Source: Formosa sp. Hel1_33_131 | GTDB taxonomy: Bacteria > Bacteroidota > Bacteroidia > Flavobacteriales > Flavobacteriaceae | Reading direction: 5' to 3' | Assembly: GCF_001735745.1 (NCBI RefSeq) | Contig: NZ_CP017260.1 | Coordinates: 360,001 to 392,000, forward strand | DNA: 32,000 nucleotides | In this document: piece after piece, positions 1,117 through 16,268 of the stretch | Position numbering within the stretch: position 1 is the stretch's first letter | Layout of the letters: every line of letters starts with the position of its first letter | Program-made: the position numbers and the translations under genes | The notes under the pieces: generated by a model | The model's database searches: none | Told to the model about the DNA's origin: nothing | Seen by the model: only the letters and a program-made list of their open reading frames with translations

Positions 1117-2220
1117 TTAAACTAAACCATATTGTTTAATCACTTTTTGTTTTAGTGGATTTAAACTCCAGTCTTCCCACGTACATGTACTCGGATTATA
1201 CCCACATTTTAAAGGTTTACTATATAAATCCATTGGATTTTCTATAAAAGCTCTACAATCTGTACAATTAAATCTAAATTCACAGTCTTTACAAGTATCA
1301 ATTTGAGTTTTATTTATTGTCCAAAACTTATTAAAAGTCTTTTCTTTAATAATATCTTTTATTTTAGTTTCTTTTAAATTACCGTGTATTAAATCCATTA
1401 CTGGACAATTTTTAATATTCCCTGATGAATCTATTGAAACTTTTTTATTTAAACATCCATTTTTTTCCTCTAATTCAATATGATTATTTATGTTTTCAAA
1501 ATTTAAGTTTTCTTTATTAATAACTCCACAACACTTCCCTTTATTAAAAGGATATGTAATAAAATATAGTTTACCGAAATGAAGTGGATAGAATCCTTCT
1601 TTTTCAATTGAAAAATCTACGATTTCTGATTTAGGTGAGCTATATATGTATATATGAGATATTGGAGAGTAGTTTAAAATTAAGTCATTTAAATCTTTCG
1701 TAGATACTTCTTCGGAATAAGTCAAATGCATTTCAACATAATTAATATTTGTTTTATTAATTATATCTAATATTTTCTTTTTAAAGTTTAAATTAAATTT
1801 AGAAAGAAACCTTAACTGTACATCGTTGCATCTCAACTCTTCAATTTCAGCTACTAATTGTGTAAACATTGTTTCTGAAAAATTACTCTCATCAATTTCT
1901 ATAATTACATCTTTTAATAACACAAACTCATCATCAACACAGTTTTCTCTTGCGGGATAACTATCTAAATTACTAGAAAAAAAACCTATTTCATTATGTA
2001 GTAAAAACTCTATAAACTCTGAAAATGATTTTTTAGACTCATCATTAATAGTTTCTTCTATTTCATTAATTCTATTTCTATTTAAAATTTGTATTAAATC
2101 AAAATATTCATTTGAAATAAAGTATAATTCATTTCTCAAATAATCAATTATTAAACTTCTTTTGAGTCCTTTAACCACCTTACAACTACTTGAAAGTATA
2201 AAAAAATTATTATTCATCAT
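1117..2220 (-). CDS. SPASM-domain peptide maturase lacking the radical-SAM CX3CX2C motif (grasp-with-spasm type)
   Basis: ORF-track frame 1117..2289. The likely true start is MMNNNFFILSSSCKVVKGLKRSLIIDYLR (ATG at 2220 or 2217), which matches the usual N-terminus of this family. The C-terminus carries a full SPASM Cys set: C-x15-C with G-x4-C (CLNKKVSIDSSGNIKNC), CKDCEFRFNCTDC, then CGYNPSTC. No CxxxCxxC occurs anywhere in the protein. Confidence 0.75.
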   Translation of the reverse strand: MMNNNFFILSSSCKVVKGLKRSLIIDYLRNELYFISNEYFDLIQILNRNRINEIEETINDESKKSFSEFIEFLLHNEIGFFSSNLDSYPARENCVDDEFVLLKDVIIEIDESNFSETMFTQLVAEIEELRCNDVQLRFLSKFNLNFKKKILDIINKTNINYVEMHLTYSEEVSTKDLNDLILNYSPISHIYIYSSPKSEIVDFSIEKEGFYPLHFGKLYFITYPFNKGKCCGVINKENLNFENINNHIELEEKNGCLNKKVSIDSSGNIKNCPVMDLIHGNLKETKIKDIIKEKTFNKFWTINKTQIDTCKDCEFRFNCTDCRAFIENPMDLYSKPLKCGYNPSTCTWEDWSLNPLKQKVIKQYGLV

Positions 2221-2428
2221 TGTTAAAAGTTTTAAAATTAATTGTTTTAGAAATTTGTCTATTTGGATAATAGTCTCGCATATTATCACACTGAAGAAAA
2301 GAATTATATTTTATCATTTTTAACTCATCATGAATAAATGTAATTTGATTATAATAAATCTTTCTAAAATGAAGAGGTATTTTATTAAGTTTTTCCCCTT
2401 TTAACTCTACTTTATTTAAATATTCCAT
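2210..2428 (-). CDS. Hypothetical 72-aa protein between the ATP-grasp and SPASM genes
   Basis: The ORF almost exactly fills the otherwise 191-nt gap between two operon genes. It overlaps the ATP-grasp stop by 17 nt and the proposed SPASM start by 11 nt, a translational-coupling-like layout. I recognise no family. Confidence 0.4.
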   Translation of the reverse strand: MEYLNKVELKGEKLNKIPLHFRKIYYNQITFIHDELKMIKYNSFLQCDNMRDYYPNRQISKTINFKTFNNDE

Positions 2429-3425
2429 TTATTAAATATTTTGCTATTATTTTATCTAAATTATAATTACATGGCTCTGAGACCATTCCATATTGACCTA
2501 CAGGATTTATTTCTAAAAACACATAGTCTCCATTCTTATTTATTATTAAATCTACAGAGCCACAGTTTAACTTTAATTCATTAAAGAGGTTATCTAATTT
2601 TACTTCAACATTTTTAGGTAATTTATATGGTTCTGTTTTATTTGGTTTTTGACTATTGTATTTTCTAAAATCTACTACTGTTTGGTTTGATGATTGAGAA
2701 AATATAACCATTGAAAAGAAGTGCCCGTCCAAGTAGAAAGTTCTAATTTCTGACTCCTTTTCAATTTGTTCCATAATTAGTGATGGGAAAAAGTGAATTT
2801 CTTCATTAGTAGTGTGTAGTAACTCGTCTTCTATAAGTTCGGTATAAGAATAAAATCTTTGGTTACCTATAATATTATAAACTCCATTAGATATAGCTTT
2901 TGAAATAAGATTAGGATTATTTTTACCAAATTCATACATTTGAGTAGTATTTCTAACAATTTTAAAATTTGGTATTTTTAACCCTTGCTTCTTTGCTATT
3001 TCATTAACAATCAGTTTATTCAAATTAAATGTAGGTTTTCCTAAATTAATTTTGCAATTTTGATAAACTTGATAATAAATAAAATCAATTAAATCTTCTA
3101 CTTCATTTTTTATAAGATCACTATTTTTATCAATAAGAGAAGTTAAGTTAAACCCCTTACTAAATAACACATCTTCCTTTTTTAAATCAGTAAAATAAGA
3201 TTTTCCAATACCTCTTCTACGCCACCAACATGCTTTTGCATCAAGTAAATTGAAAACTTTATTGGTCAAAGTGTTTTTAATAAAAATACCTTTAGACGTA
3301 ATTTTATCAAATTTATGTATTTCATCATCTGCATTTAATCTGATGACTTTTTCTCCAAAATATTCCAACCATCTAATTACATCTGAAGTAGAAATATCAT
3401 ATTTAATTGTGAAAATTATAATCAT
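2412..3425 (-). CDS. ATP-grasp peptide maturase (graspetide-type macrolactone/lactam ligase, grasp-with-spasm type)
   Basis: 337 aa. The N-terminus MIIIFTIKYDISTSDVIRWLEYFG is typical of RiPP ATP-grasp maturases from Bacteroidota. The C-terminal GSVDLIINKNGDYVFLEINPVGQYG is the ATP-grasp Mg/ATP-binding core. It lies 11 nt downstream of the precursor genes. Confidence 0.8.
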   Translation of the reverse strand: MIIIFTIKYDISTSDVIRWLEYFGEKVIRLNADDEIHKFDKITSKGIFIKNTLTNKVFNLLDAKACWWRRRGIGKSYFTDLKKEDVLFSKGFNLTSLIDKNSDLIKNEVEDLIDFIYYQVYQNCKINLGKPTFNLNKLIVNEIAKKQGLKIPNFKIVRNTTQMYEFGKNNPNLISKAISNGVYNIIGNQRFYSYTELIEDELLHTTNEEIHFFPSLIMEQIEKESEIRTFYLDGHFFSMVIFSQSSNQTVVDFRKYNSQKPNKTEPYKLPKNVEVKLDNLFNELKLNCGSVDLIINKNGDYVFLEINPVGQYGMVSEPCNYNLDKIIAKYLINGIFK

Positions 3426-3436
3426 GCCTTACTTAA

Positions 3437-3601
3437 TTAATCAACATCGTGTGAATGAGAATCATTATCATTAGCCGTTGTCATAGTATGACGATGACTA
3501 GTATTGGTAGCCGTATTATTAGTTATTTCCTGTTTGCCTCCAGTTATATTTTGCAATTTGGAAGAGCTTAATTGTTCTACTTTAAATTTATTTAGTTTCA
3601 T
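3437..3601 (-). CDS. Precursor peptide P1 (54 aa) with a double-glycine leader
   Basis: Hand translation: MKLNKFKVEQLSSSKLQNITGG|KQEITNNTATNTSHRHTMTTANDNDSHSHDVD*. It has a Bacteroidota GG-type leader and a core with 10 Ser/Thr in 32 residues. It sits 11 nt upstream of the ATP-grasp gene and is below the ORF-track size cutoff. Confidence 0.8.
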   Translation of the reverse strand: MKLNKFKVEQLSSSKLQNITGGKQEITNNTATNTSHRHTMTTANDNDSHSHDVD

Positions 3602-3612
3602 ATTTTTTTTAT

Positions 3613-3780
3613 TTAGTCTGAATCATTTCTGAGTGCATCTTGGTCTGAACAACAGCAAACTGTTTGTCTACGACTACTATGAGTAGGACCTTCAAATGCA
3701 ACTTCTTTCATCTGCCCTGCAGCTACATTTTGTAATACTGAAGTAGATAGTTGTTCGAATTGAAAATTTGATAGTTTCAT
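3613..3780 (-). CDS. Precursor peptide P2 (55 aa) with a GG-type (AG) leader
   Basis: Hand translation: MKLSNFQFEQLSTSVLQNVAAG|QMKEVAFEGPTHSSRRQTVCCCSDQDALRNDSD*. The leader is nearly identical at the nucleotide level to that of P3. There is an 11-nt gap to P1. Confidence 0.8.
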   Translation of the reverse strand: MKLSNFQFEQLSTSVLQNVAAGQMKEVAFEGPTHSSRRQTVCCCSDQDALRNDSD

Positions 3781-3848
3781 AATCTTTAGTTTTAATTATA
3801 TTTGTATTAGTTATACTATTTGTGTCTAGCTTTTAGTATAATAACAAT

Positions 3849-3877
3849 ACACAAGAGGATTAAAAACCCTCTTGTGT
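3849..3877 (-). terminator. Perfect 10-bp stem-loop after P3; candidate partial terminator or processing/stability hairpin
   Basis: ACACAAGAGG (3849-3858) and CCTCTTGTGT (3868-3877) are exact reverse complements with a 9-nt loop. The hairpin lies 20 nt past the P3 stop. No clear U-tract follows on the minus strand. Confidence 0.45.
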
Positions 3878-3897
3878 TAATTGAGAAAAACTATAGC

Positions 3898-4062
3898 TTA
3901 ATCGCTATCCTGTCTACCAGTATCGTGATCTGTACCAGTACATGTTGTTCTTCGTCTTCTAGTGCTTGTAACACCTTCGTCTTCTAAAGCCATAGTTCCT
4001 CCTGCAATATTTTGTAATTCAGAAGTAGATAGCTTTTCAAATTGAAAATTTGATAATTTCAT
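3898..4062 (-). CDS. Precursor peptide P3 (54 aa) with a double-glycine leader
   Basis: Hand translation: MKLSNFQFEKLSTSELQNIAGG|TMALEDEGVTSTRRRRTTCTGTDHDTGRQDSD*. It is the first of the three tandem precursor genes, 101 nt downstream of the OMP gene. Confidence 0.8.
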   Translation of the reverse strand: MKLSNFQFEKLSTSELQNIAGGTMALEDEGVTSTRRRRTTCTGTDHDTGRQDSD

Positions 4063-4117
4063 AATTTCAAAAGATTAGAATTATGCCTACTCTTTTTAAG
4101 GTTTTCGGCTTACCCTG

Positions 4118-4131
4118 ATTGTTGCAACAAT
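4118..4131. promoter_or_regulatory. Perfect 14-bp palindrome ATTGTTGCAACAAT upstream of the precursor genes; candidate operator
   Basis: Exact self-complementarity read directly from the sequence. It lies 55 nt upstream of the P3 ATG, in the OMP-P3 intergenic region. Confidence 0.35.
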
Positions 4132-4163
4132 TTTGTTATCAGATAAAAAACTGATTTATATTT

Positions 4164-6548
4164 TTAATTAAGTCTTTGTTTATCTTCGTTAAATTTAGCT
4201 ATCCTTCTTTGCTTTACATTTTTACTACCAATTTTATAAGTAAGTGAAAGTGTAAAATTTCTCATATCGTTATAAATACTTGAAGACTGTGTGAAATTCT
4301 GATACTGTTCTTCTCCTACATTTCTATTTTGTTTAAATAAATCATTTCCAGATATATTTACTTGAAGGTTCTCTTCAAGTAATCTAAATTTCAATCCTAA
4401 ATCAAGACTAGCTCTGTTTCTTGATTTAAAAAAACCATCTACGTTCGGAAAGCTTTGAAAGAAATTGATTGTAAAAAAGGATGTTCTTTTTTCGTTTAAA
4501 GAAATGGTGTTTTTTGTTGAAAAATAGACACCATAACCATCATAAGATTTTAATGTTTCATTTTCAAAATTTGAATTTGCTTTATTAAAATAAGTACTTA
4601 CAGAATTATAACTATTAACCCATTTAAAAAGTGTTAAACGATGGCTAACATCTAAACCATAAGTGTATTGATTATATAGGTTTTCCGGCTTCGTAATAAT
4701 CTCATTAGAATTTTCATTAGCTATAGTAATAAAGTCTATAACATCAATAAGCTTTGAACCATATAATATTAGCGATAAGTTGTTTTTATAAATGTATGAA
4801 AATTCTAAATTATGAGTAAATGAAGGCAATAAAAAAGGATCCCCCGATTCATAAGAATATGGGTCTGAATAAATTCTGAAAGGATTTAAATTTGAAAAAC
4901 CTGGTCTATCAATTCTTTTTGAATAAGACATAGATAGTGAATGATTTTCTTTTGGATCATATGAAATATATGCACTCGGAAAAATATTATTTAAATTATT
5001 AGTGTTTGTCTGGTTTAATGTAGGAGAGAAACCTTTTAAATAGGTATTTTCGTATCTTAAACCTATTTGTGCAATCCATTTTTCACTTAATTCTTTCTCT
5101 ATTGAAATATATAAGGCTGATGTTCTTTCTTCATATTCGAATTGATTAGACCTGTTTAAATTGATTATTGGAGTTCCATATGTTGTATCGTAGTAAAACA
5201 GACTACTATTATTATTTATAAAAGTTAATTTTCCTCCAACCTCTAAATCAAAAGCATCATAAGGTAGTGTGAAATCTGTTTTTAAAGATGCTACTTCATA
5301 TTTGTTATCAGAATTATTTAGAACAGATGTATTTAAACTATTAACACCATTACCCAGCCTATTAATACTATTGAAATCTATATCATTTGAACTATCTTTT
5401 ACTAAGTAATCGATATTTAAACTGAATTTCTTTCCAATACTATCTAGCTTTAAATCATAATATCCATTAATAGAATGAAAATTATACTTATTTTTATTTC
5501 TTGTTAACGTTGTTAAAATAGAGTCTAAAACAAAATTTTCCTTTTGAATAAAATTACTTATATTATTTCCTCTTTGACTAATATCCCAAAAACTACCGCT
5601 ATAAATAAATCCTGTTTCTGATTTTTCATTTATTTTATAATTCGAATTTAGATTTAGCATTAACCCTTTAGAAGAATCTTTTCTGTCTTTTGATGTATTC
5701 CAAAATCTAGAAGTGTATTCTACATCGTTTGTAGATATAGATTTTTTAGCTTCTGTATCAGCAGAGACGTTCAGTGATATATTTAATTTTTTAGTCGCAA
5801 ATTTCACATTACTGGTTGGTATAAAGGCAGCATATGTTCTTTGTATATATGTAGCTCCAACAGAACCATCCCATCCTAAGTTTGGATTTTTTTTAGTTAC
5901 AATATTAATTAAACCACTGTTTCCTTCAGCGTCATATTTAGCAGGAGGCGTTGTAATAACTTCTATTTTTGAAATATTGTCTGAACGAATACTTCTTAAA
6001 TATGCTTCTAAATCACTACTTGATAAATTGAGCACTCTTCCATCTATTAAAACATTAACACTACTTTTTCCAATAATTTTGATTCCACCACTTGAAACAT
6101 CAATTCTTGGAGTTCGTTGCAAAACTTCTAATCCATCAACTCCTTGAGAAACAATACTATTTTCAACATTAAAAATTAATCGGTCGACTTTTTTTTGGAT
6201 TAAAGGTTTTTTTGCTGAAATAACTATTTCATCTAATTTATTTTTACTGTGTATTAATGTAATATTACCTAAATCAATGTCTTTATTTTTAACTAGTACT
6301 TCTTTAACCCAGTCCTTATAACCAATAAAAGTAACTATTAAATTGTATTTTCCTTTTTTTGATTTTATTGTAAAAGAACCTTGATCGTTGGTTATAGAGC
6401 CTGAAACAAAATTATTATCAACGTCAGTCAATATAACATTCGCAAACTCTATATAGCTTATAGAGTCTTTTACCTTCCCCTTTACAATAATTTGAGAAAA
6501 AGAAAAAAAGGGAATAATTGAGGTTAAAGCTAATAATAAATACTTCAT
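4164..6548 (-). CDS. Outer-membrane beta-barrel / TonB-dependent-receptor-like protein with an N-terminal carboxypeptidase-regulatory-like domain
   Basis: 794 aa. There is a signal peptide (MKYLLLALTSIIPFFSFSQ), then a CarboxypepD_reg-like fold (IVKGKVKD...GSFTIKSKKGKYNLIVTFIGY). A plug-like segment follows (DEIVISAKKP...VDRLIFNVENS...LEVLQRTPRIDV...ISKIEVITTPPAKYDAEGNSGLINIVTKK), then a long barrel rich in aromatic and Asn residues. The C-terminus SLTYKIG plus a basic tail is typical of the Bacteroidota OMP_b-brl_3-type family. Confidence 0.8.
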   Translation of the reverse strand: MKYLLLALTSIIPFFSFSQIIVKGKVKDSISYIEFANVILTDVDNNFVSGSITNDQGSFTIKSKKGKYNLIVTFIGYKDWVKEVLVKNKDIDLGNITLIHSKNKLDEIVISAKKPLIQKKVDRLIFNVENSIVSQGVDGLEVLQRTPRIDVSSGGIKIIGKSSVNVLIDGRVLNLSSSDLEAYLRSIRSDNISKIEVITTPPAKYDAEGNSGLINIVTKKNPNLGWDGSVGATYIQRTYAAFIPTSNVKFATKKLNISLNVSADTEAKKSISTNDVEYTSRFWNTSKDRKDSSKGLMLNLNSNYKINEKSETGFIYSGSFWDISQRGNNISNFIQKENFVLDSILTTLTRNKNKYNFHSINGYYDLKLDSIGKKFSLNIDYLVKDSSNDIDFNSINRLGNGVNSLNTSVLNNSDNKYEVASLKTDFTLPYDAFDLEVGGKLTFINNNSSLFYYDTTYGTPIINLNRSNQFEYEERTSALYISIEKELSEKWIAQIGLRYENTYLKGFSPTLNQTNTNNLNNIFPSAYISYDPKENHSLSMSYSKRIDRPGFSNLNPFRIYSDPYSYESGDPFLLPSFTHNLEFSYIYKNNLSLILYGSKLIDVIDFITIANENSNEIITKPENLYNQYTYGLDVSHRLTLFKWVNSYNSVSTYFNKANSNFENETLKSYDGYGVYFSTKNTISLNEKRTSFFTINFFQSFPNVDGFFKSRNRASLDLGLKFRLLEENLQVNISGNDLFKQNRNVGEEQYQNFTQSSSIYNDMRNFTLSLTYKIGSKNVKQRRIAKFNEDKQRLN

Positions 6549-6755: not shown

Positions 6756-9008
6756 ATGTTAAAACCTAAAAACCCTTATACTTTTTTCAATACTTATTGT
6801 TTAAGAACACCTCTTTTACCATTGAATCGGGTTTTAAATGCACTACAAAAAAGAGGTTTTGAGGATGAGTCTCTAAAAGAGTATTGGCAAAACACTCATT
6901 TAAAAGAAGCTGTTTTTTTAGCATCGCCCTACCTTTTCTCTGAACTAGAATTACTATTTGAGGGAACAATCACTTCTGTAAAAAAAGCAGAAAAGTTAAA
7001 ACAAAGCTTTTTAAAATATGTTCTCAGAGCCTCCTCTCGTTGTACGCCTTTTGGACTGTTCTCTGGAGTCTCTTTAGGTCATTTTAATGATACAAGTTGT
7101 ATAGAACTAGAAACAACTAAAACCTTGAAACGCCGAACACGTTTGGATGTGAACTATATGGTTGCGCTCTCAAACTATTTAGAAAAAGAGCCCGTCATAA
7201 AAAACCAATTGGTGTTTTACCCCAACAGTTCGCTCTATAAAATTGCGGATCAATATCGATATATTGCATTTGAAATAGATGGTTTAAAACGCTCTTATGC
7301 TGTTGAAGGCATAGAGTATTCGGTTTATATAGAGACCGTCTTAAATGAAGCTAAAATGGGTAAAACCATTACTGAATTGGCCGTTACAATTACGGACGAA
7401 ACGATCACTGAAGAGGAAGCCACCCACTTTATTCATGAACTCATAGACAACCAGGTCTTAAGTAGTGAATTAGAACACTCTATTTCAGGAACTGATATGC
7501 TATCCCAAACACTAGTGACCTTAAAACAATTAAAACAGTGTGACTCTAATATACAAGACCTACTTAGCATTCAAAAAACACTTCAAAAATTAGATGACAC
7601 TGACAGAAATACCAGTGAAGATTATAAAAAATGTAATCCGATTTTAGAGGCCCTTGGCGTGCCTTATGAGACGAAAGATGTGTTTCAAACGGATCTTTTT
7701 ACAACGACTAAAAACAATGCTTTAAACAAAAAAGTAGCGCACGAATTACGCCGGGCTTTACCACTTTTAAGTAGCCTTAACAAAAAAGATCACAACCCTC
7801 ATTTAGAGCAATTCAAAAAAGCGTTTAAAGAGCGTTATGAAACAAGAAAAATTCCATTAGCTATGGCTTTGGATATAGAAATGGGAGTTGGCTACATTCA
7901 AAATGAAGCTGTTTCAAATACCGTTTCGTTTTTAAATGACATTACGCCTCAAACAGATCACTCCTCTTCTCAAAACTTCTCTTTATCAGAAATTGAAATT
8001 AGCATTCAAAAATTAATGTTTGATGCATTAAAGAATCAGCACTATAGCATTGAACTAAAGGAAGCAATTTTCGCGGATCGTGAAGTGTCTATAGATCATT
8101 TACCTGACACCCTTTCCGCACTCATTGAAGTGATTACTCTAAACAATGAAGAATGTGTTTACATACACTCTTTTGGAGGTTCCAATGGGGCTAATTTACT
8201 TGCTCGGTTTTGTGAGGAGACTGGAGAATTATTTGATTACGTTAAAGAAATGACCTGTATAGAACAGCAGATGAACCCACACAGTGTTTTAGTTGAACTC
8301 ATCCATTTGCCTGAAGCTAGAGTTGGAAATGTGATTAAAAGACCGCATTTAAGAGCTTATGAATTGCCCTATCTCGGCAAGTCTAATCTGCCGTTAGAAC
8401 AGCAAATTAATATTAATGATGTTTTAGTATTTATTAAAAACAACCGTATTGTTTTATGGTCAAAAAAATTAGACAAAGCCATTCTACCTCGTTTAACAAA
8501 TGCTCATAATTACACAAAAAATACGCTTCCTATCTATCATTTTTTATGTGATTTACAAACTCAAAATATTCAAAAAAAGCTTGGATTTTCTTGGGGCGCA
8601 CTCGCCAACAATCATTCCTTTTTACCTAGAGTGTGTTATAAAACCCTCATTCTTTCCAAAGCCACTTGGATTATTGAAACTAAAAAATTTCAATCTTTAT
8701 TTAAATTAGACAAAAACGGAGCGAACTTATTGGATTTAATAAGCGGGTGGAGAGCAACTATTCAAATGCCTCAATATGTTCAGTTAAAAGAAGCCGATAA
8801 TACGTTACTTATAAATCTCGAAAATACAACAATGCTTCATTTGTTATTCGATTCGGTTAAACGCAAAACACAGTTTATCTTAGAAGAATTTTTATTTACA
8901 GAAAAACCTATCGTAAAAAATGAGGATAATGATTTTTTTACGAATCAATTTGTAGTGTCATTTTACAATGAGGAAAAACTAAAAAAAGCTGTTAATTATG
9001 CAAACTAG
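6756..9008 (+). CDS. Lantibiotic dehydratase family protein (LanB N-terminal, tRNA-Glu-dependent glutamylation domain)
   Basis: 750 aa. The N-terminus NPYTFFNTYCLRTPLLPLN and the RCTPFGLFSGVSLG motif are hallmarks of the Lant_dehydr_N family. The size fits a stand-alone glutamylation domain. Confidence 0.85.
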   Translation: MLKPKNPYTFFNTYCLRTPLLPLNRVLNALQKRGFEDESLKEYWQNTHLKEAVFLASPYLFSELELLFEGTITSVKKAEKLKQSFLKYVLRASSRCTPFGLFSGVSLGHFNDTSCIELETTKTLKRRTRLDVNYMVALSNYLEKEPVIKNQLVFYPNSSLYKIADQYRYIAFEIDGLKRSYAVEGIEYSVYIETVLNEAKMGKTITELAVTITDETITEEEATHFIHELIDNQVLSSELEHSISGTDMLSQTLVTLKQLKQCDSNIQDLLSIQKTLQKLDDTDRNTSEDYKKCNPILEALGVPYETKDVFQTDLFTTTKNNALNKKVAHELRRALPLLSSLNKKDHNPHLEQFKKAFKERYETRKIPLAMALDIEMGVGYIQNEAVSNTVSFLNDITPQTDHSSSQNFSLSEIEISIQKLMFDALKNQHYSIELKEAIFADREVSIDHLPDTLSALIEVITLNNEECVYIHSFGGSNGANLLARFCEETGELFDYVKEMTCIEQQMNPHSVLVELIHLPEARVGNVIKRPHLRAYELPYLGKSNLPLEQQININDVLVFIKNNRIVLWSKKLDKAILPRLTNAHNYTKNTLPIYHFLCDLQTQNIQKKLGFSWGALANNHSFLPRVCYKTLILSKATWIIETKKFQSLFKLDKNGANLLDLISGWRATIQMPQYVQLKEADNTLLINLENTTMLHLLFDSVKRKTQFILEEFLFTEKPIVKNEDNDFFTNQFVVSFYNEEKLKKAVNYAN

Positions 9009-9858
9009 ATTTTTTTTAGGGGATGAATGGATTTACTATAAATTGTATTGTGGTAAACGAACAGCGGATCATATTCTTGTGGATATTATAAAGCCATTTA
9101 CTGAAAAACTATTAAAAGAAAACCTAATCACCAAATGGTTCTTTATTCGGTATCACGACCCTAACCATCATTTACGGGTGCGCTTTCATTGTGAAGATCT
9201 TTCTAAAATAGGGACGATTATTAATACCTTTAAAAATGCGATCGACCATCAAGTTGCTAATGACTTTATTTGGAAGGTTCAAACAGATACCTACCAAAGA
9301 GAAATTGAACGCTATGGGAAACTCACAATGATTGGATCAGAGAATCTGTTTTTTCATGACAGCAGCACTAGCATTAATGCTTTGAATTTGATTGAAGATG
9401 AGGAACTCTTATTTTTATTTGTTTTAAAATCCATAGATGCATTGTTAAGTGTTTTTGAATACGATTTAAAAGCTAAAATTAGTTTCTCTAAAGTGAACCT
9501 GACTTCTTATAGAAATGAGTTTAAAGCGGAGAAAAACTTCAGCAAACAGCTAAATAAAAAATATCAAAAATTAAGACCTAAAGTGGAATCGTTCATGGCT
9601 TTAAAAGAAAGTAGTGATTATGACGCTCTCTTAAACTTAATAACGACTAAGAATAGAGAAATCGAAACAATTAAAACACCTATTTTAGAGTTGCATAAAA
9701 ATAATAAATTAGAAGTTCCGTTAAATCATTTACTATCTAGTTATATACACATGATGGTCAACCGTCAATTTAGAGACAAACAACGTTTATTTGAATTGGT
9801 TTGTTATGATTGCCTATTTCGATATTACAACAGCCTATTTGCAAAACAATTAAATTAA
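8998..9858 (+). CDS. Thiopeptide-type bacteriocin biosynthesis domain protein (LanB C-terminal / SpaB_C glutamate-elimination domain)
   Basis: 286 aa. WIYYKLYCGKRTADHILVDIIKPF...KWFFIRYHDPNHHLRVRFH is the signature of Lant_dehydr_C. It overlaps the upstream gene by 11 nt, giving a split LanB as in thiopeptide systems. Confidence 0.8.
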   Translation: MQTRFFLGDEWIYYKLYCGKRTADHILVDIIKPFTEKLLKENLITKWFFIRYHDPNHHLRVRFHCEDLSKIGTIINTFKNAIDHQVANDFIWKVQTDTYQREIERYGKLTMIGSENLFFHDSSTSINALNLIEDEELLFLFVLKSIDALLSVFEYDLKAKISFSKVNLTSYRNEFKAEKNFSKQLNKKYQKLRPKVESFMALKESSDYDALLNLITTKNREIETIKTPILELHKNNKLEVPLNHLLSSYIHMMVNRQFRDKQRLFELVCYDCLFRYYNSLFAKQLN

Positions 9859-9864
9859 CTCAAC

Positions 9865-11541
9865 GTGAAGTATAAATTATCCCCCATATTTATCTTTCTA
9901 TTTCTGACTTCAACCCTTTGGAGCCAACAAACGGCTTTAAGTTATGAAGTTTTAGAAAACAATATTAAGACTTCAAAGTCAGATTCTATTCGTGAAATAT
10001 ATGCTTCGACGTTACTTTTAAAAGCAAAAAAAGAAAATAATGTTCTAAAAATTGCTGATGGCTATAATCATTTGTCAGAAATTAACTCCCACACTTTAAG
10101 TGGTTTAAAATATGCTGATAGTATTATTGACTTGACAGCTACATTAATAAATTCAAAATACCCTGCTGAAGGTTATCTTCAAAAAGGAATTCAGTTGTTT
10201 TATTTAGCAAAACATAATGAATCCTTAGACAATTATATTAGGGCTCTTAATGATTTTCAGGCAAATAATAATACTTATGGAAAAGTAAGAGTGAACCATT
10301 ATATAGGTCTATTAAAAAACAGTATAAATGAAGAGAAAGAAGCGTTAGAAATTTTTAAAAAAAATATTTCTTTTTTTGAAAGTTCAAAAAATAAACATTT
10401 ATACAAAAGACAATACTTAAAGTCCTTATTTGCAATTGTAGATTCTTATAACAGAAATAAAATATTAGATTCAGCAGAAATATATGGAAGAATGGGTATT
10501 AAGGAAAGCTTTCAAAGTCATGACAAGTATTTGTATAATTATTTTTTATTATCATATGGATCAACTAAAACTTTTAAGGGAGAATATAAAGTAGCGATTG
10601 ACAGTCTTATTAAAGGCACCAAATTATTAACAAATGAAAAGCTTGTAATAGCAGGAAGTTATTTGATTTTAAGTCAAGCTTTTGAAGGCCTAAAAGAGTA
10701 TTCAAAATCATTACTATATTTAGATAAAGTAGATTCATTATATCAAAAAAATCCTGAAACAATATTTCAAGCAAAGGAATCTTATAAGATTTTACTTAAG
10801 TATAGTCAAAAAGAAAATAATCCCCAAAAGCAATTAAATACAATTAAAAAACTTCTTAAAGTTGATAGTATTATTAATGTTAAACACAATCAGTTAAGTA
10901 AGAATATTGTAAAAAAACATGATACTCCAGAATTAATTTTAGAAAAAGAACGCATAATTAAACAATTGAATAATAGTTATTCTTTATCCAAAAATAAAAT
11001 TATTATTTTATCTATTGTCATTATCTTCTTAATTATCATTTTGCTTTATAGTATAAGAAAAAGCATAATTAATAAGAAAAAATTTGAAATTATTAAAGCA
11101 AAAATTAATTCCGATGTTAAAGAAGAAAACAAAGAAAATTTAATAAAGGTTACTACTACAACTACTATTACTACTGGAATACCCGAAGATTTAGTAAAAG
11201 AAATTATACTTAGTTTAGAGAAATTTGAAAGTTCAAATAAGTTTTCAAAAAAACATTATACATTAAACACCCTTGCAAAAGAACTAAAAACAAACAGCAC
11301 CTATTTATCTAAAGTAATAAATGCAACAAAAGAAGCAAATTTTGCTAATTATTTGAACAATTTAAAAGTTGATTTTGCTATTAAAAGGTTATCAAAGAAT
11401 AAGCAATTTAGAGCATATACAATAAAAGCTATTGCAGAGGATTCTGGTTTTAATAACGCACAATCATTTTCGGCTGCATTTCATAAAAAAACAGGTATTT
11501 ATCCATCATATTTTATTAAAGAACTTAATAATGAAAAATGA
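9865..11541 (+). CDS. Membrane-spanning one-component regulator: signal peptide, TPR-like repeats, one TM helix, C-terminal AraC-type HTH
   Basis: GTG start. The signal peptide is MKYKLSPIFIFLFLTSTLWSQQ. About 340 aa of helical-repeat sequence follow, then the TM helix IIILSIVIIFLIIILLYSI and a basic stretch RKSIINKKK. The C-terminus HYTLNTLAKELKTNSTYLSKVIN...IKAIAEDSGFNNAQSFSAAFHKKTGIYPSYF is an AraC/XylS HTH. Confidence 0.8.
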   Translation: MKYKLSPIFIFLFLTSTLWSQQTALSYEVLENNIKTSKSDSIREIYASTLLLKAKKENNVLKIADGYNHLSEINSHTLSGLKYADSIIDLTATLINSKYPAEGYLQKGIQLFYLAKHNESLDNYIRALNDFQANNNTYGKVRVNHYIGLLKNSINEEKEALEIFKKNISFFESSKNKHLYKRQYLKSLFAIVDSYNRNKILDSAEIYGRMGIKESFQSHDKYLYNYFLLSYGSTKTFKGEYKVAIDSLIKGTKLLTNEKLVIAGSYLILSQAFEGLKEYSKSLLYLDKVDSLYQKNPETIFQAKESYKILLKYSQKENNPQKQLNTIKKLLKVDSIINVKHNQLSKNIVKKHDTPELILEKERIIKQLNNSYSLSKNKIIILSIVIIFLIIILLYSIRKSIINKKKFEIIKAKINSDVKEENKENLIKVTTTTTITTGIPEDLVKEIILSLEKFESSNKFSKKHYTLNTLAKELKTNSTYLSKVINATKEANFANYLNNLKVDFAIKRLSKNKQFRAYTIKAIAEDSGFNNAQSFSAAFHKKTGIYPSYFIKELNNEK

Positions 11542-11581
11542 ATTCAAGTTGTTGATTTAAAAAGTCTTGGCTAATTATTTT

Positions 11582-11604
11582 GTTGTTGATATTTATAAAT
11601 TTCA
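11582..11604. promoter_or_regulatory. Third copy of the palindromic operator, upstream of peptide P4
   Basis: GTTGTTGATATTTATAAATTTCA matches 6608-6630 at 21 of 23 positions. The 16-mer at 11588-11603 is 15/16 identical to the perfect palindrome. GTTGATATTTATAAATTTCAAC (11585-11606) is itself a 22-bp near-palindrome. It lies 65 nt upstream of the P4 ATG. Confidence 0.6.
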
Positions 11605-11668
11605 ACATATAAAATAGCATTAAATCAAAATTATAGCAGTAGATTTATAAAACTCTAAATTTAAAATT

Positions 11669-11815
11669 ATGAAAAAAACAGAATTAAAAAAAGAAAAACT
11701 TGGAATTAAAAAATTTCAAATTTCAAAAATCAACAACCCTCAATTAATAATTGGTGGGAATGCTAATTTAGGTGATGATGATGACGGCGATCATCCAACA
11801 CTAGTAACTAAATAG
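11669..11815 (+). CDS. Small GG-leader peptide P4 (48 aa)
   Basis: Hand translation: MKKTELKKEKLGIKKFQISKINNPQLIIGG|NANLGDDDDGDHPTLVTK*. The leader resembles P1-P3 (KFQISKI...LIIGG versus NFQFEKL...LQNIAGG). It has its own operator upstream and a strong terminator downstream. It is below the ORF-track cutoff. Confidence 0.7.
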   Translation: MKKTELKKEKLGIKKFQISKINNPQLIIGGNANLGDDDDGDHPTLVTK

Positions 11816-11860
11816 AAAAAACACACACCATATTCTAATTTATTATGGTGTGTGTTTTTT
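11816..11860 (+). terminator. Rho-independent terminator / attenuator after P4
   Basis: ACACACACCATA (11821-11832) and TATGGTGTGTGT (11844-11855) form an exact 12-bp stem with an 11-nt loop. A T-run follows (to 11860) and an A-run precedes it. Confidence 0.75.
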
Positions 11861-11875
11861 AAATTAATAAACCCT

Positions 11876-14053
11876 ATGAACTATAAATCTATTGCTATTT
11901 TAATTCTATGTATTTTAATTATGCAATGTAAAAATAAGAAAGAATTAGTGTTAGCACCAATTAATGTTGTTGTTGATGAAATTCATGGACAAAGAATAGA
12001 AGATCCGTATCGTTATATGGAAAATATTGATGATAGTATTTATATAAATTGGTTAAAAGGTCAAAAAGAAAATAAAGAATCAGTAGTAGGTAATATTTCT
12101 AATAGAGATAATTTAAAATTAAAAATAGAAAAGTTTCAAGAAAGGACTCCTGAAAAAATCTCAAAACTAACAATCATGGATAATGATGTTTACTTTTATT
12201 TAAAAGAGAACACAACATCTAAAGTAAAAAAACTGTATTCAAGAGATGGCTTTAAAGGAGAAGAAGTTTTATTATATAATCCTGAAAACTTTGATAATGA
12301 ACATCCTTATGTAATAAATTATATTAAACCTAGTTGGGATACTTCAAAAGTAGTTATAGGCTTAACAAAAAATGACGAAGAATTTTCAATATTAAAAATC
12401 CTTGATGTAAAAACTAAAAATTTAGTTGGAGATATTAAAATAACTAATACACTTCCAACTTCTCTAGGAGGTGTTAAATGGTTGCCTGATGATTCTGGTA
12501 TTATTTATGTAAATGTACCAGTAATTGATTCTAAATCTAAAAAATATTTACACAATTCGGAAGTTGTACTATATAGATTTAATGATAACCCTAAAGAATC
12601 TCCCACTGTTATTTTTTCAAAAAAGGAGAATCCAAAACTGAAAATAAAGGAAGAAGATTTCCCGTTAATTTACTTAGACAACCAAAATGTTGAATATATT
12701 ATTGGAGTGGTTACTAGAGCTTCAAGATATAGAGATACTTATTATATAAAAATAGATGAACTTAATAATAAAAAAATTAAATGGGAGCCATTATTTAAAA
12801 AAGAAGAAAAGATTAAACGCTTTATTGTTACAAAAGATGAAATCATTTATATGACTTCAAAAACAACTCCCAATTTTCAAATATGTAAAACCTCACTAAG
12901 TAATCCTGATTTTGAAAATCCACAAGTTTTAGTTTATGAGAATACTAAAGAAGTTATTACAGATTTTGTTATAACAAAACAAGGCTTGTTTTTCGTAAAA
13001 ATAAAAAATGGTGTTGATGCAAAACTTTATAAAATAGAAAATAATCAAGAAAAAAATATCGAGATCCCAAAACCTTCAGGAAGTATAAATGTATCCTCCA
13101 AAAATGAAAACTCTAATGATTTATGGATATCGATTGATGGGTGGACGCATAAAAAAGAGACCTATAAATATGATTATGATAAAAGTGTATTTATCCCTCA
13201 AAATTTATACCCAGTAGCAGAATATTCGTTACTCAATGATGTGGTTGTTAAAGAAATTGAAGTACCATCGTATGATGGTACATTAGTTCCATTATCTGTA
13301 ATTTATAAAAATAGCATTAAATTAAATGGAGAAAACAGAATGTTACTTACTGGCTATGGCGCTTATGGCATAACTGATAAACCTGTGTTAGACGACTATT
13401 TACTAAACTGGATTAATGAAGGAGGAATCTATGCTTTAGCACATGTGAGAGGTGGAGGAGAAAAAGGAGATGCATGGCATAAAGAAGGGTTTAAAACAAC
13501 AAAACCAAATACATGGAAGGACTTTATTTCGTGTACTGAATATTTGATTGATAAAGAATATACTTCAAATAAAAATTTAGCTGTTTGGAGCGGAAGTGCT
13601 GGAGGAATACTTGTAGGTAGAGCGATTACTGAACGTCCAGATTTATATGCTGCCGCAATAATACGGGTCGGATTACTAAATACTTTACGTTCAGAGTTCG
13701 CTCCAAACGGAAAAAATAATATTAAAGAATTTGGAACAATTAAAGATTCATTAGAATTTAAATCTCTATTAGAAATGGATGCGTTTCACAACATAAAAGA
13801 TGGTGTTGAGTATCCAGCAGTTTACTTAACAGGAGGTATGAATGATGCTAGAGTTGCTGTTTGGCAACCTAGCAAATTTGCTGCAAAATTGCAAAAAGCA
13901 AATGCTTCTGAAAATCCTATTATTTTAGATATTGATTTTGATGGTGGTCATGGATTTGATGCAACTTCAAATAAAAAAAATAATGAATTAGCAGATATAC
14001 TTTCTTTTGCACTCTGGCAAACTGGACATCCAGATTATCAATTGAATAGATAG
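11876..14053 (+). CDS. Prolyl oligopeptidase (S9A family), lipoprotein, copy 1
   Basis: I prefer ATG 11876 (MNYKSIAILILCILIMQCKNK, signal plus lipobox-like Cys) over the track's GTG 11852, which lies inside the terminator stem. The N-terminal beta-propeller region and C-terminal hydrolase domain carry an intact triad context: GSAGG (Ser), GGMNDARV (Asp), DGGHG (His). Confidence 0.9.
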   Translation: MNYKSIAILILCILIMQCKNKKELVLAPINVVVDEIHGQRIEDPYRYMENIDDSIYINWLKGQKENKESVVGNISNRDNLKLKIEKFQERTPEKISKLTIMDNDVYFYLKENTTSKVKKLYSRDGFKGEEVLLYNPENFDNEHPYVINYIKPSWDTSKVVIGLTKNDEEFSILKILDVKTKNLVGDIKITNTLPTSLGGVKWLPDDSGIIYVNVPVIDSKSKKYLHNSEVVLYRFNDNPKESPTVIFSKKENPKLKIKEEDFPLIYLDNQNVEYIIGVVTRASRYRDTYYIKIDELNNKKIKWEPLFKKEEKIKRFIVTKDEIIYMTSKTTPNFQICKTSLSNPDFENPQVLVYENTKEVITDFVITKQGLFFVKIKNGVDAKLYKIENNQEKNIEIPKPSGSINVSSKNENSNDLWISIDGWTHKKETYKYDYDKSVFIPQNLYPVAEYSLLNDVVVKEIEVPSYDGTLVPLSVIYKNSIKLNGENRMLLTGYGAYGITDKPVLDDYLLNWINEGGIYALAHVRGGGEKGDAWHKEGFKTTKPNTWKDFISCTEYLIDKEYTSNKNLAVWSGSAGGILVGRAITERPDLYAAAIIRVGLLNTLRSEFAPNGKNNIKEFGTIKDSLEFKSLLEMDAFHNIKDGVEYPAVYLTGGMNDARVAVWQPSKFAAKLQKANASENPIILDIDFDGGHGFDATSNKKNNELADILSFALWQTGHPDYQLNR

Positions 14054-14099
14054 CGTAGCATTAACAATAGTTAAAATTAGAGTCATATAAGAATTGTTT

Positions 14100-16268
14100 A
14101 TGAAAATCATTAGATTAAAACTATTACTTTTAGTTGTGTGTGTTTTTAGTTGTAAAACTAACAACAATACATCTATAGAAATGTTGCCAGAAAAAGAAGT
14201 GGTTGAGGAATATTTTGGAACGACTGTTAAAGATTCTTATAAATATATGGAAAACCTCAATGATACTATCGTTTTAAATTGGTATAAACAACAAAGTAAC
14301 TATGCTAAGAATAAAATTGATAAGATTCACAATCGAAATAAAATTTTGAAGTTTCAAAATATTATAACTAACAATACATCTAAAATTTCAAATATTTTAA
14401 TAACTAATAATAACCTATATTTTTATTTAAAGAATCATAATGACACAAAAGAGCTCTTTTATAGAGAAGGGATTCATGGTGAGGAGTATTTTTTATTTAA
14501 TCCTGAAAAACATAAAAAAGGAAGTGCTATAAATTATATTGCTCCTAGTTGGGATGGATCAAAAGTAGCAATAGCTATGACTAAAGATGACTTAGAAATT
14601 GGCAATATCATTGTTTTAGATGTATCTAATAAAAAACTATACAACGAATCCATAAATAATTGCTGGCCTTCAGCCTTAGGTGGAATAAGATGGCTTGCTG
14701 ATAATTCTAGATTTACCTACGAATATATCCCCGTTATTGATAAAAAAGAAAAGAATTATTTATTTAATACCGAAACTCGTTTACATGTTTTGGGAGAAAA
14801 CCCTGTTAACGACAGAATATTATTTTCAAATAAAAACAATCCTGAGATTGAAATAAAAGAAGAAGATTTCCCTGAGGTTTCTATTAGCAACGAAAAAAGC
14901 AATTACATATTTGGGAGTGTTTGGGGGGCTAGCTATTATGCTGATTACTACTCCTCCTCTATTGAAAATATTAACAACCAAAAAATCACATGGAAGCCTC
15001 TTTTTAAAAAAGAAGATTTAATAAAGCGGTTTTATTTAGAGGGTGATTATATAGTTTATTTATCCGCAAAAAAAGCTAAAAATTTTGAGATCTGTAGAAC
15101 TTCATTAATTAATCCAAATTTTGAAGATCCAGAAATTTTAGTCTCCGAAGATGAATCATCTGTAATCACAGATTTAACTTTAACAAGCAAAGGATTGTTT
15201 TTTGTTAAAACAAAGAATGGAGTTGAGGCTAAGTTATATCAATTTATTAATAAGAATAAGATCAATAATATTACTCTACCCAAAGAAGCTGGTTATATTA
15301 ATGTTTCTTCTAATGGGAATTTATTCCCTGACTTGAGAATTGAAATTAAAGGTTGGTTGTCCGACAAAGAACGTTATCAATTTAATCATAAAACAAATCA
15401 GTTTACTAAAGAACAATTAGCCAAAGAAAATGGCAATAATGATGAATTATTTGATGGAATTATAATTGAAGAAATAGAAATCATATCGCATGATGGAGTG
15501 AAAGTTCCATTATCACTAATTTATAACAAAGACCTAGAATTAAATGGCCAAAATAGAGTGCTAATAAAAGGATATGGAGCATATGGAATAACTCAAAAAC
15601 CTTTTTTGGATCCTTATATACTGCCTTGGCTAAAAGAAGGTGGGATTTATGCGATGGCGCATGTAAGAGGAGGAGGAGAAAAAGGCGACTTCTGGCATAA
15701 AAGTGGGTATAAAGAAACAAAACCTAATACATGGAAAGACCTAATAGCCTGTTCGGAATATCTTATCCATAAAAAGTACTCTTCTAGTAGTAAAACTGTT
15801 ATTTATAGCGGCAGTGCTGGGGGTATTTTAATAGGTCGAGCCATAACTGAAAGACCAGATTTGTTTGCAGCAGCTATTATAAGAGTTGGAGTACTAAATA
15901 CTTTAAGGTATGAGTTTTCACCAAATGGAAAAAATAATACTAAAGAGTTAGGTTCAGTCCAAGATTCCATTGGATTTAAAGGTTTGCTTGAGATGGATGC
16001 TTATCAGCATATTGAAAAAGGAGTAAAATACCCCGCAGTATACTTGACAGCTGGATTAAATGATTCTAGAGTATCCGTTTGGCAACCAGGGAAATTTGCC
16101 GCTAAACTACAAGCTGCAACCACTTCAAATAATCCAGTATTTCTTAATGTAGATTCAGAAGGAGGACATGGACTTGATACTTCTAAAAATAAGAAAAATA
16201 AAGAAATTGCCGATATCCTCTCTTTTGCATTATGGCAAACAGGGCATCCAGATTTTCAGTTGAAATAA
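14100..16268 (+). CDS. Prolyl oligopeptidase (S9A family), lipoprotein, copy 2 (tandem paralogue)
   Basis: I prefer ATG 14100 (MKIIRLKLLLLVVCVFSCKTNN, lipobox Cys) over the track's TTG 14094. The protein is collinear with copy 1, sharing long identical runs (GYGAYGIT, AHVRGGGEKGD, TKPNTWKD, GRAITERPDL, ADILSFALWQTGHPD). Triad contexts GSAGG, GLNDSRV and EGGHG are intact. Confidence 0.9.
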   Translation: MKIIRLKLLLLVVCVFSCKTNNNTSIEMLPEKEVVEEYFGTTVKDSYKYMENLNDTIVLNWYKQQSNYAKNKIDKIHNRNKILKFQNIITNNTSKISNILITNNNLYFYLKNHNDTKELFYREGIHGEEYFLFNPEKHKKGSAINYIAPSWDGSKVAIAMTKDDLEIGNIIVLDVSNKKLYNESINNCWPSALGGIRWLADNSRFTYEYIPVIDKKEKNYLFNTETRLHVLGENPVNDRILFSNKNNPEIEIKEEDFPEVSISNEKSNYIFGSVWGASYYADYYSSSIENINNQKITWKPLFKKEDLIKRFYLEGDYIVYLSAKKAKNFEICRTSLINPNFEDPEILVSEDESSVITDLTLTSKGLFFVKTKNGVEAKLYQFINKNKINNITLPKEAGYINVSSNGNLFPDLRIEIKGWLSDKERYQFNHKTNQFTKEQLAKENGNNDELFDGIIIEEIEIISHDGVKVPLSLIYNKDLELNGQNRVLIKGYGAYGITQKPFLDPYILPWLKEGGIYAMAHVRGGGEKGDFWHKSGYKETKPNTWKDLIACSEYLIHKKYSSSSKTVIYSGSAGGILIGRAITERPDLFAAAIIRVGVLNTLRYEFSPNGKNNTKELGSVQDSIGFKGLLEMDAYQHIEKGVKYPAVYLTAGLNDSRVSVWQPGKFAAKLQAATTSNNPVFLNVDSEGGHGLDTSKNKKNKEIADILSFALWQTGHPDFQLK

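Follow-up and report, generated by a model that had tools for sequence, protein, structure and literature searches.

Three paralogous peptide genes of Formosa sp. Hel1_33_131 as probable precursors of a grasp-with-SPASM cluster

Precursor peptides and the genes beside them

We analyzed a stretch of 32,000 nucleotides from Formosa sp. Hel1_33_131 (assembly GCF_001735745.1, contig NZ_CP017260.1, positions 360,001 to 392,000 of the forward strand), referred to here as the window, in which three short genes in tandem encode the peptides P1, P2, and P3. An initial annotation, made from the nucleotide sequence alone, had described them as precursors of peptides synthesized ribosomally and modified after translation (RiPPs) whose Thr and Asp side chains would be joined into ester macrocycles by an ATP-grasp maturase, as in graspetides. 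We consider it probable that P1, P2, and P3 are paralogous precursors of a grasp-with-SPASM cluster, which corresponds to Group 14 of the graspetides, and that they mature by the pathway proposed below.

The three open reading frames (ORFs) lie on the minus strand, and the coordinates and 23-residue C-terminal strings given for them in the initial annotation were exact to the letter (Table 1). In RefSeq and public annotation the peptides are named either "hypothetical protein" or "bacteriocin". Each would be built from a leader of the double-glycine type (GG), some 22 residues long, then a short acidic linker, and at the C-terminus a core of 23 residues. The leaders share the form MKLSNFQFEQLS...GG and contain no Pro, the leader of P1 being MKLNKFKVEQLSSSKLQNITGG, and the DNA encoding them forms a 68-nt direct repeat in three copies (71%, 100%, and 85%). 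A MAFFT alignment of P1 to P3 placed one gap in the linker and none across the last 23 residues, as had been claimed. Invariant columns are T32, R37, T39, D45, D47, D52, and D54 in P1 numbering, equivalent to positions 1, 6, 8, 14, 16, 21, and 23 of the scaffold, and position 3 is occupied by T, S, and T in P1, P2, and P3, respectively.

When all six frames of the window were searched for the generalized motif [ST]x[ST]x4[TC]x[CST]x3DxDx4DxD, only the three scaffold sites of Table 1 came up, each directly followed by a stop codon, and the same motif gave 0 matches in 200 shuffled windows. Judged from sequence, P1 to P3 are genuine genes under selection. The center of P3, T-x-C-T-G-T-D-H-D, is typical of the family described in the next section. 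P2 has Cys at positions 10 to 12 and Gln at position 15, and P1 has no Cys at all, with Thr at position 10, Ala at 12, Asn at 13, and Asn at 15.

Searches of NCBIfam and Pfam gave no match for P1 or P2, and P3 matched only generic GG-leader models, being the one peptide of the three to reach them (TIGR01847 bacteriocin signal, 17.5 bits against 15.7; Pfam ComC, 20.5 against 20.4). These matches and the RefSeq name "bacteriocin" would suit unmodified double-glycine bacteriocins or pheromones lying near an ATP-grasp gene by coincidence. We find this scarcely credible: wherever a locus is long enough to judge, the precursor genes adjoin genes for ATP-grasp, LPL, and SPASM proteins, and the conserved residues are exactly the donors and acceptors of graspetides.

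The grasp-with-SPASM assignment draws on the four genes downstream of the precursors, which are on the same strand with frames that overlap or nearly abut. The first encodes GwsG (WP_069675783.1), which RefSeq already names a grasp-with-spasm ATP-grasp maturase and which exceeds the cutoff of TIGR04192 (Table 1). Its next-best NCBIfam models are MvdC (TIGR04185, 123 bits against a cutoff of 425) and MvdD (TIGR04184, 110 against 475), and its PDB matches are solely graspetide ligases, namely AMdnB (7m4s, 4e-26), MdnC/MdnB (5ig8 and 5ig9), and CdnC (7mgv), enzymes whose ester/amide macrocyclization has been demonstrated. The view that RiPP precursors lie beside an ATP-grasp maturase is thus upheld, and by homology GwsG is predicted to install side-chain esters. 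The TIGR04193 gene, encoding the SPASM-domain protein GwsS, is one small gene away from the ATP-grasp gene on the same strand. Two marks of the graspetide class are present at the locus: an ATP-grasp protein of the RiPP-macrocyclase clade encoded beside the precursors, and conserved donors (positions 1, 3, 8, 10, and 13) together with Asp acceptors in the cores.

Table 1. Features of the 32,000-nucleotide window of Formosa sp. Hel1_33_131, with positions counted from its first letter
Feature	Position	Strand	Remarks
Precursor P1 (FORMB_03220)	3437-3601	minus	54 aa; 23-aa scaffold at 3440-3508
Precursor P2 (FORMB_03230)	3613-3780	minus	55 aa; scaffold at 3616-3684; AG cleavage-site variant
Precursor P3 (FORMB_03240)	3898-4062	minus	54 aa; scaffold at 3901-3969; RefSeq name "bacteriocin"
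GwsG, ATP-grasp peptide maturase	2412-3425	minus	337 aa; TIGR04192 362.8 bits, cutoff 230
LPL-family small protein	2210-2428	minus	72 aa; overlaps end of ATP-grasp gene and start of SPASM gene
GwsS, SPASM-domain peptide maturase	1117-2220	minus	367 aa; TIGR04193 342.1 bits, cutoff 175; Pfam SPASM only
ABC exporter with C39 double-glycine peptidase	1-1104	minus	N-terminal 368 residues; runs off window start
Outer-membrane beta-barrel, TonB-dependent-receptor-like	4164-6548	minus	794 aa; directly upstream of precursors, co-oriented
DUF805b cis-regulatory RNA motif (Rfam RF02914)	4084-4118	minus	44.6 bits, gathering 35.6; E 1e-9 over whole window
Conserved intergenic element after first precursor (P3)	3781-3897	minus	terminator-like hairpin 3877..3849 (11-13 bp stem) and second stem
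Separate RiPP-like module	6756-16268	plus	divergent
Split LanB-type dehydratase, Lant_dehydr_N	6756-9008	plus	
Split LanB-type dehydratase, Lant_dehydr_C	8998-9858	plus	
TPR/AraC-type regulator	9865-11541	plus	
GG-leader peptide	11669-11815	plus	48 aa; ...IIGGNANLGDDDDGDHPTLVTK
S9 prolyl-oligopeptidase-family gene	11852-14053	plus	
S9 prolyl-oligopeptidase-family gene	14094-16268	plus	
ParE-family toxin gene	16738-17052	plus	
Arginine-biosynthesis operon	17237-26058	minus	Pfam Lyase_1, Peptidase_M20, AA_kinase, OTCace, Aminotran_3, P5CR, Semialdhyde_dh, Arginosuc_synth, GNAT
Laminin_G protein	27199-31869	minus	1,556 aa; type IX secretion sorting tail

Related loci and the history of the cores

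Genomic context was available for seven distinct loci, the window included, some on short contigs that hold only part of the gene order. By identity of their ATP-grasp protein to that of the window, the other six are a group of JGI metagenome contigs (L005 to L008; 79% for L005, with four precursors in L005 and L006), Tenacibaculum sp. TC6 (L001/L009; 75%, one precursor), a group of ENA/Logan contigs (L002 to L004; 72%, one precursor), an Antarcticibacterium metagenome-assembled genome (L010; 71%, one precursor), the locus of peptide P0030 (L013/L014; 55%, two precursors), and that of P0027 (L015; 45%, three precursors). Every locus that is long enough has the same order: barrel, one to four precursors, ATP-grasp, a protein of 71 to 75 residues, SPASM protein, C39-ABC exporter, and HlyD-type protein. 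The contig of P0022, with 774 nt, was too short for context. One of three loci found in a scan of genome contigs for the ATP-grasp gene, L011, encodes an unrelated Burkholderiaceae ATP-grasp with 28% identity and was set aside.

Genes associated with mobility were seen near two of these loci. L002 carries genes for a single-stranded DNA-binding protein, a TraG-type coupling protein of a type IV secretion system, and a DDE transposase (1241-5421 and 17301-20165), with an RHS/toxin gene nearby, and in L001 a tyrosine integrase lies beside a tRNA gene (16913-18388). Their presence agrees with reports that integrative conjugative elements carry grasp-with-SPASM clusters.

To define the scaffold in the wider family, a profile of P1 to P3 was searched against 5.8 billion proteins and yielded 9 close homologues, and a profile of nine sequences (P1 to P3 and six homologues) yielded 23 representatives at E <= 1e-3 among 1.84 billion cluster representatives. 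The string DxDx4DxD is present in 31 of 34 family members and forms the extreme C-terminus in 27; anchored on it, 30 unique cores of 23 residues could be counted. S or T occupies position 1 in 30/30 and position 3 in 29/30, and T occupies position 8 in 29/30, all but P0014, in which Cys and Thr are swapped between positions 8 and 10 (C8, T10). Position 10 is C in 23 cores, S in 4, and T in 3, and is thus a nucleophile in every one of the 30; G occupies position 12 in 22 and S or T position 13 in 26. D-H-D is the commonest form of positions 14 to 16, with His15 in half of the cores (15/30).

The initial annotation had set conservation at homologous clusters as a test of its reading, and its expectation was borne out: the homologues of the six other loci and the 23 database representatives retain [ST]1, [ST]3, T8, D14, D16, D21, and D23. 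Nucleophilic position 10, G12, [ST]13, the SPASM and LPL genes, and the C39 exporter are features beyond those it had named. Its "fixed basic patch" around R6 does not hold as a general feature, since R is found at position 6 in only 8/30 cores and marks a subfamily, the Tenacibaculum and Antarcticibacterium type having H there.

The AG cleavage site of P2 recurs in the family members P0025, P0026, P0028, and P0029. Minimal members of the family (P0025, P0026, and P0029) have just 3 residues between the AG site and position 1, and the core thus consists essentially of the 23 scaffold residues. Departures from the common layout were also seen: P0017 and P0020 have a shorter core ending in ...NDxDHPEDxA, P0018 and P0024 have C-terminal extensions with a second GG, and P0031 has a long C-terminal tail. 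Four members, P1, P0012, P0018, and P0031, have no Cys at all. Taken over the family, an always nucleophilic position 10 would fit a donor for the ligase better than an obligate thioether Cys.

For each of the three precursor types, an orthologue of the core is present in the four-precursor locus L005. The core of P2 matches that of peptide c (P0005) in 22/23 residues and 63/69 nt, with a rate of nonsynonymous substitution (dN) of 0.018 and a rate of synonymous substitution (dS) of 0.50; the core of P3 matches that of peptide a in 18/23 residues and 58/69 nt (dN 0.12, dS 0.41); and the core of P1 matches that of peptide d in 17/23 residues and 57/69 nt (dN about 0.20, dS 0.19, from few sites). 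The P1 core orthologue occurs in L006 and L008 as well, and between the Tenacibaculum and Antarcticibacterium orthologues dN is 0.11 and dS 0.97. These comparisons indicate that the cores are under purifying selection and that the core types are old paralogues, which are not hypervariable between genomes.

The leaders tell another history. The initial annotation had called those of P2 and P3 nearly identical at the nucleotide level and had deduced a tandem duplication followed by diversification of a hypervariable core. Leader identity is in fact 55/66 nt (83%), against 37/69 nt (54%) for the cores. The P2 leader agrees with the P3-type leader of L005 peptide a (gene at 864-1028) in 59/66 nt (dS 0.15), and with the leader of its own core orthologue, L005 peptide c (1321-1488), in only 47/66 nt (dS 0.61). 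Because the leader and the core of P2 have discordant histories, the likeness of the P2 and P3 leaders is best attributed to an exchange of leaders, or to gene conversion, among old paralogues, and not to recent duplication with core diversification.

Two noncoding elements accompany the precursors. A match to the DUF805b cis-regulatory RNA motif lies 22 nt upstream of the P3 start codon, and the same motif, at about that distance, precedes the first precursor in L001 (9944-9978), L002 (9945-9980), L005 (806-841), L007 (2831-2866), and L010 (5331-5366), with scores of 40.6 to 47.3 bits over the window and these five loci. It was not found at the more distant L013 or L015, and we came across no report that connects this motif with RiPP precursors. 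The second element, of about 110 nt, follows the first precursor and has a strong terminator-like hairpin with the arms ACACAAGAGGG...CCCTCTTGTGT; counterparts with the same stems lie in L005 (1029-1141), L001 (10166-10272), L002 (10166-10275), and L010 (5554-5665). In Tenacibaculum the ATP-grasp gene comes directly after it; in Formosa and L005 the additional precursors are inserted behind it. A possible role is that of an attenuator or RNA-stabilizing element fixing how much precursor is made relative to enzyme; the five sequences show no compensatory changes in the hairpins, so the RNA structure is not proven. The Bacteroidota promoter pattern TTTG-N17-21-TAnnTTTG has no exact match in the window, and sigma-70-type promoter matches are fewer than in shuffled sequences (7 against 12.9).

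Maturation genes, proposed pathway, and the divergent module

The 72-residue protein encoded between GwsG and GwsS is assigned to the LPL family by motif and position, as no hidden Markov model exists for that family. It carries KIPLHFRKIYYN, with NLPLFFRKIYFN and DLPLYFRKIYFN as the corresponding strings in orthologues; all six loci examined have the motif L..[IL]PL.F.KIY[FY]N, and the protein occupies the same slot in L001, L002, L005, L013, and L015. No Pfam or NCBIfam model matched it, a word-indexed homologue search returned only the protein itself, and its single-sequence AlphaFold2 (AF2) model was poor (predicted local distance difference test, pLDDT, 58.5) and was not used. Makarova et al. 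(2022) noted a likeness between the LPL motif and Phh(x1-2)h/PFFARFL, a leader motif that is lacking in the leaders of their Branch 5. The protein is a candidate partner or chaperone or, given this likeness, a candidate leader-like activator of the ligase acting in trans, which would be a reasonable role.

The start codon of gwsS is probably the ATG at 2220 and not the listed GTG at 2289, 69 nt further upstream, because the former gives the length of 367 residues common to the orthologues. From the N-terminus, the protein consists of a strand-plus-helix domain, an alpha/beta domain in the center, and a SPASM domain at the C-terminus. An alignment of 36 homologues shows 8 invariant Cys, all of them C-terminal, and the CxxxCxxC site of radical S-adenosylmethionine (SAM) enzymes in 0/36. 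There was no Radical_SAM match in Pfam and no PDB match by sequence. The AF2 model (pLDDT 86.9) has its best PDB fold matches in CteB, TigE, and SuiB (E 4e-6 to 7e-5), with template-modeling (TM) scores of only 0.25 to 0.37. Since the CxxxCxxC site is lost, GwsS is not a canonical radical-SAM enzyme, and going by the model it looks like a maturase of radical-SAM lineage that lost the SAM-binding cluster.

These properties bear on an alternative in which the SPASM protein makes the key modification, a Cys thioether or redox cross-link as in sactipeptides and ranthipeptides, the Thr/Asp pattern serves for recognition or as acceptor, and the ATP-grasp protein is secondary. Makarova et al. (2022) proposed thioethers for Branch 5; TIGR04193 accompanies essentially every Group 14 ATP-grasp, most of the unique cores have Cys at position 10, and CteB, TigE, and SuiB, which the GwsS model resembles, make thioethers and cross-links. 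That resemblance, however, comes with the low TM scores given above, SPASM is the only Pfam domain of GwsS and the cluster motif is absent from all homologues, Ser or Thr freely replaces Cys10, and P1 is free of Cys like P0012, P0018, and P0031, yet belongs to a locus that contains the SPASM gene. With P1 and several family members lacking Cys, a Cys-based cross-link cannot be the universal job of GwsS, and we regard this alternative as unlikely. In Carter et al. (March 2026), the list of secondary modifications known for graspetides is very short and includes none made by a SPASM protein. Under the grasp-with-SPASM pathway, GwsS and the LPL protein would instead act as partners or tailoring factors.

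The fourth downstream gene encodes an ABC protein with a C39 peptidase (Pfam Peptidase_C39, 126 bits; ABC_membrane, 94 bits) in which the catalytic-type motifs DCGPTC and NHYVV are present. Full-length orthologues of 728 to 750 residues occupy the same slot in L001, L002, L003, L013, and L014, and the ORF list of L010 has ORFs of matching length at this position. By homology it is predicted to be a leader-cleaving exporter.

On the other side of the precursors, the barrel protein matches OMP_b-brl_3 (307 bits), TonB_dep_Rec_b-barrel, and CarbopepD_reg_2 in Pfam and recurs in the same slot in L001, L002, L003, L005, L007, L013, and L014; L010 has an ORF of 797 residues there. This family is the graspetide-associated cluster 163 of Makarova et al. 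(2022), and the barrel is predicted to serve passage of the peptides across the outer membrane, in export or uptake. As the most tightly linked non-biosynthetic gene, and one that resembles TonB receptors, it also lends itself to a scheme compatible with ATP-grasp cyclization, in which mature peptides bind metal through Asp/His/Cys-rich cores and the barrel re-imports the complex; D-H-D is the commonest form of positions 14 to 16, P1 has four His and four Asp, and Cys10 is common. This seems to us very unlikely. The four Asp, if esterified, would no longer be available as ligands, and His at position 15 is not conserved, being replaced by N in P1 and by Q in P2. Export is the role given to the barrel in published interpretations, and no TonB/ExbBD, metal-regulator, or reductase genes were seen in the window.

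By homology to characterized ligases, the grasp-with-SPASM pathway would begin with phosphorylation of the carboxylates of Asp 14, 16, 21, and 23 by GwsG, which would then join them to Ser/Thr at positions 1, 3, and 8, to Cys/Ser/Thr at position 10, and usually to Ser/Thr at position 13, giving a polycyclic lactone peptide. Graspetide synthetases can make esters, amides, and non-native thioesters. Because the inner segment shares the spacing of microviridins and chryseoviridins, T8-D14 is the likeliest inner ring, together with S13-D16 in cores that have Ser or Thr at position 13. This is speculative and read from the register, as is the pairing of T1/T3 with D21/D23 that may form outer rings. 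The C39-ABC exporter would cut the leader at the GG or AG site and export the peptide, and the adjacent barrel would handle its passage across the outer membrane. The graspetides that have been characterized all inhibit proteases, and by analogy the product is probably a protease inhibitor as well, with three cores giving three specificities.

Several points weigh against this pathway. Our search of the literature turned up no experimentally determined structure of a grasp-with-SPASM product, and ester formation here is predicted by homology. Ring connectivity is not readable from sequence, and Asn13 and Ala12 of P1 mean that an S13-D16 ring is not universal. Microviridin-type ligases are activated by a PFFARFL/Phh motif, which is missing from the present leaders, so substrate recognition must differ from the microviridin type. 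Finally, the family was gathered with a profile built from these same peptides, which makes the core conservation partly a selection effect; the profile score owes much to the leader, and genomic context was confirmed at seven loci.

A bolder picture, to which we give a small chance, is an uncharacterized architecture with a microviridin-like inner bicycle nested within two outer Thr-Asp rings, as many as four or five rings within 23 residues, in which the ATP-grasp protein would link Cys10 to Asp as a natural thiolactone or the SPASM protein, its radical-SAM site lost, would process Cys10 by a new route independent of SAM, and in which the LPL protein would supply a PFFARFL-like helix in trans. 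If the helix were supplied in trans, one ligase could accept many GG-leader cores.

About 200 bp past the barrel gene begins the separate, divergent RiPP-like module of Table 1. Its two dehydratase genes (Lant_dehydr_N, 443 bits; Lant_dehydr_C, 219 bits) raise the possibility that P1 to P3, with cores rich in Ser, Thr, and Cys, are converted to dehydroamino acids or lanthionines as in lanthipeptides. The adjacency is repeated in Tenacibaculum sp. TC6, where the same LanB module flanks the locus and one S9 gene is visible at its edge. We rejected the module as a modifier of P1 to P3 and judge such a role highly improbable, because it is divergently transcribed, has its own GG-leader peptide (with a counterpart in TC6), regulator, and S9 peptidases, and does not accompany this precursor family in L002 or L013; the ORF list of L010 shows no ORF large enough upstream, and no LanC-type cyclase was found in the window. 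The remaining genes of the window are a toxin gene, an arginine-biosynthesis operon, and a gene for a large Laminin_G protein (Table 1).

Comparison with known systems

The initial annotation had been unable to match the central basic patch and the C-terminal D-x-D to a named graspetide group. The system is in fact the one described as grasp-with-SPASM (gwsG/gwsS; TIGR04192 and TIGR04193), Group 14 in the RODEO classification and Branch 5 of Makarova et al. (2022). Both marker enzymes exceed their cutoffs in Formosa, and the locus shares with it the LPL gene between the markers, several GG-leader precursors upstream, the C39-ABC exporter, the barrel, and a Bacteroidota host. Group 14 is characterized by the co-occurrence of TIGR04193 with an ATP-grasp protein. 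Reportedly it was first defined by Ramesh in 2021. The latest RODEO survey counts 1,643 clusters for this group; TIGR04193 has a frequency of 100.9% among them, and NHLM-type exporters one of 35%. Makarova et al. (2022) describe 190 Bacteroidetes-specific loci of Branch 5 with ATP-grasp, SPASM, and LPL genes, the LPL gene directly upstream of the SPASM gene, and highly diverse GG precursors, several per locus. A 2026 preprint uses the names gwsG and gwsS and describes the same set of exporter and barrel.

The system has therefore already been catalogued by bioinformatics, and the Formosa locus reveals no new kind of system. P1 to P3 differ from the precursor families of Group 14 in having no match to TIGR04139, TIGR04149, or PF14406, which we take to be the published precursor models of grasp-with-SPASM. 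The supplements of Makarova et al. (2022) and Carter et al. (2026), searched for Formosa, Tenacibaculum, and strings typical of the subfamily, returned only one Prevotella cluster, numbered 603. P1 to P3 are a precursor subfamily absent from these searched supplementary sets, within a known system.

Cluster 603 of Makarova et al. (2022), from Prevotella amnii and P. veroralis, consists of tandem GG-leader peptides that end in ...[GS]-[SG]-D-x-D-x4-D-x-D, examples being ...TNTQGSDGDGKTCDTDTD and ...SSNSSDHDSGLGDCD. The C-terminal D-x-D, for which the initial annotation had found no counterpart, is thereby matched to a similar ...GSDxDx4DxD end in a published cluster, and the inner part of the scaffold is in register with Group 1, as set out below. 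Beyond this end, cluster 603 differs from the present peptides. Its leaders begin MEKINLKKF..., the region N-terminal to the DxD is different and of another length, the T8-x-C10-x-G-S arrangement is absent, and its hosts are gut and oral Bacteroidales, whereas the present host belongs to the marine Flavobacteriaceae.

For the accessory proteins, likenesses are more distant. CteB, SuiB, and TigE, the radical-SAM/SPASM enzymes of RiPP pathways that gave the best PDB fold matches, have the same overall layout as the GwsS model, from which they are set apart by the cluster motif missing in all 36 GwsS homologues, the absence of a PDB match at sequence level, and the low TM scores. In rosaritide biosynthesis (Group 21; Carter et al. 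2026), MirC is a small, strictly co-occurring protein encoded beside the synthetase. The LPL protein, a putative partner, resembles it in position and co-occurrence.

Grasp-with-SPASM clusters are numerous and widespread in Bacteroidota, including mobile elements of Porphyromonas, and the chemistry of their products is unreported in the literature we found. The Formosa locus offers a compact model from a cultured strain, with three strictly C-terminal cores of 23 residues, one with no Cys, one with three Cys, and one typical of the family. Solved products would show which jobs fall to GwsG, to the degenerate GwsS, and to the LPL protein.

A reference for the core itself is Group 1, whose members microviridin, marinostatin, and chryseoviridin are made by ligases homologous to GwsG. 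Microviridins have the motif TxKxPSD and esters between Thr(i) and Asp(i+6) and between Ser(i+5) and Glu(i+8), and chryseoviridins have the motif TxKxPSDxD[DE]. Marinostatin, with ...TMRYPSDSD..., has the same two esters and is not known to have a Lys amide. The segment T8-x-[C/S/T]10-x-G12-[S/T]13-D14-x-D16 of the present family matches the spacing of the Group 1 core, with T at i, the residue at i+2, S at i+5, D at i+6, and the acid at i+8 in register. Compared with the Group 1 form TxKxPSDx[DE][DE], Lys i+2 is replaced by Cys, Ser, or Thr, Pro i+4 is replaced by Gly, and there is no acid at i+9, and an outer shell of [ST]1, [ST]3, and D21-x-D23 is added; in addition, one ligase is present rather than two, accompanied by SPASM and LPL partners. 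The comparison of cores and genes indicates that the system works like a relative of the microviridins and is not a member of Group 1.

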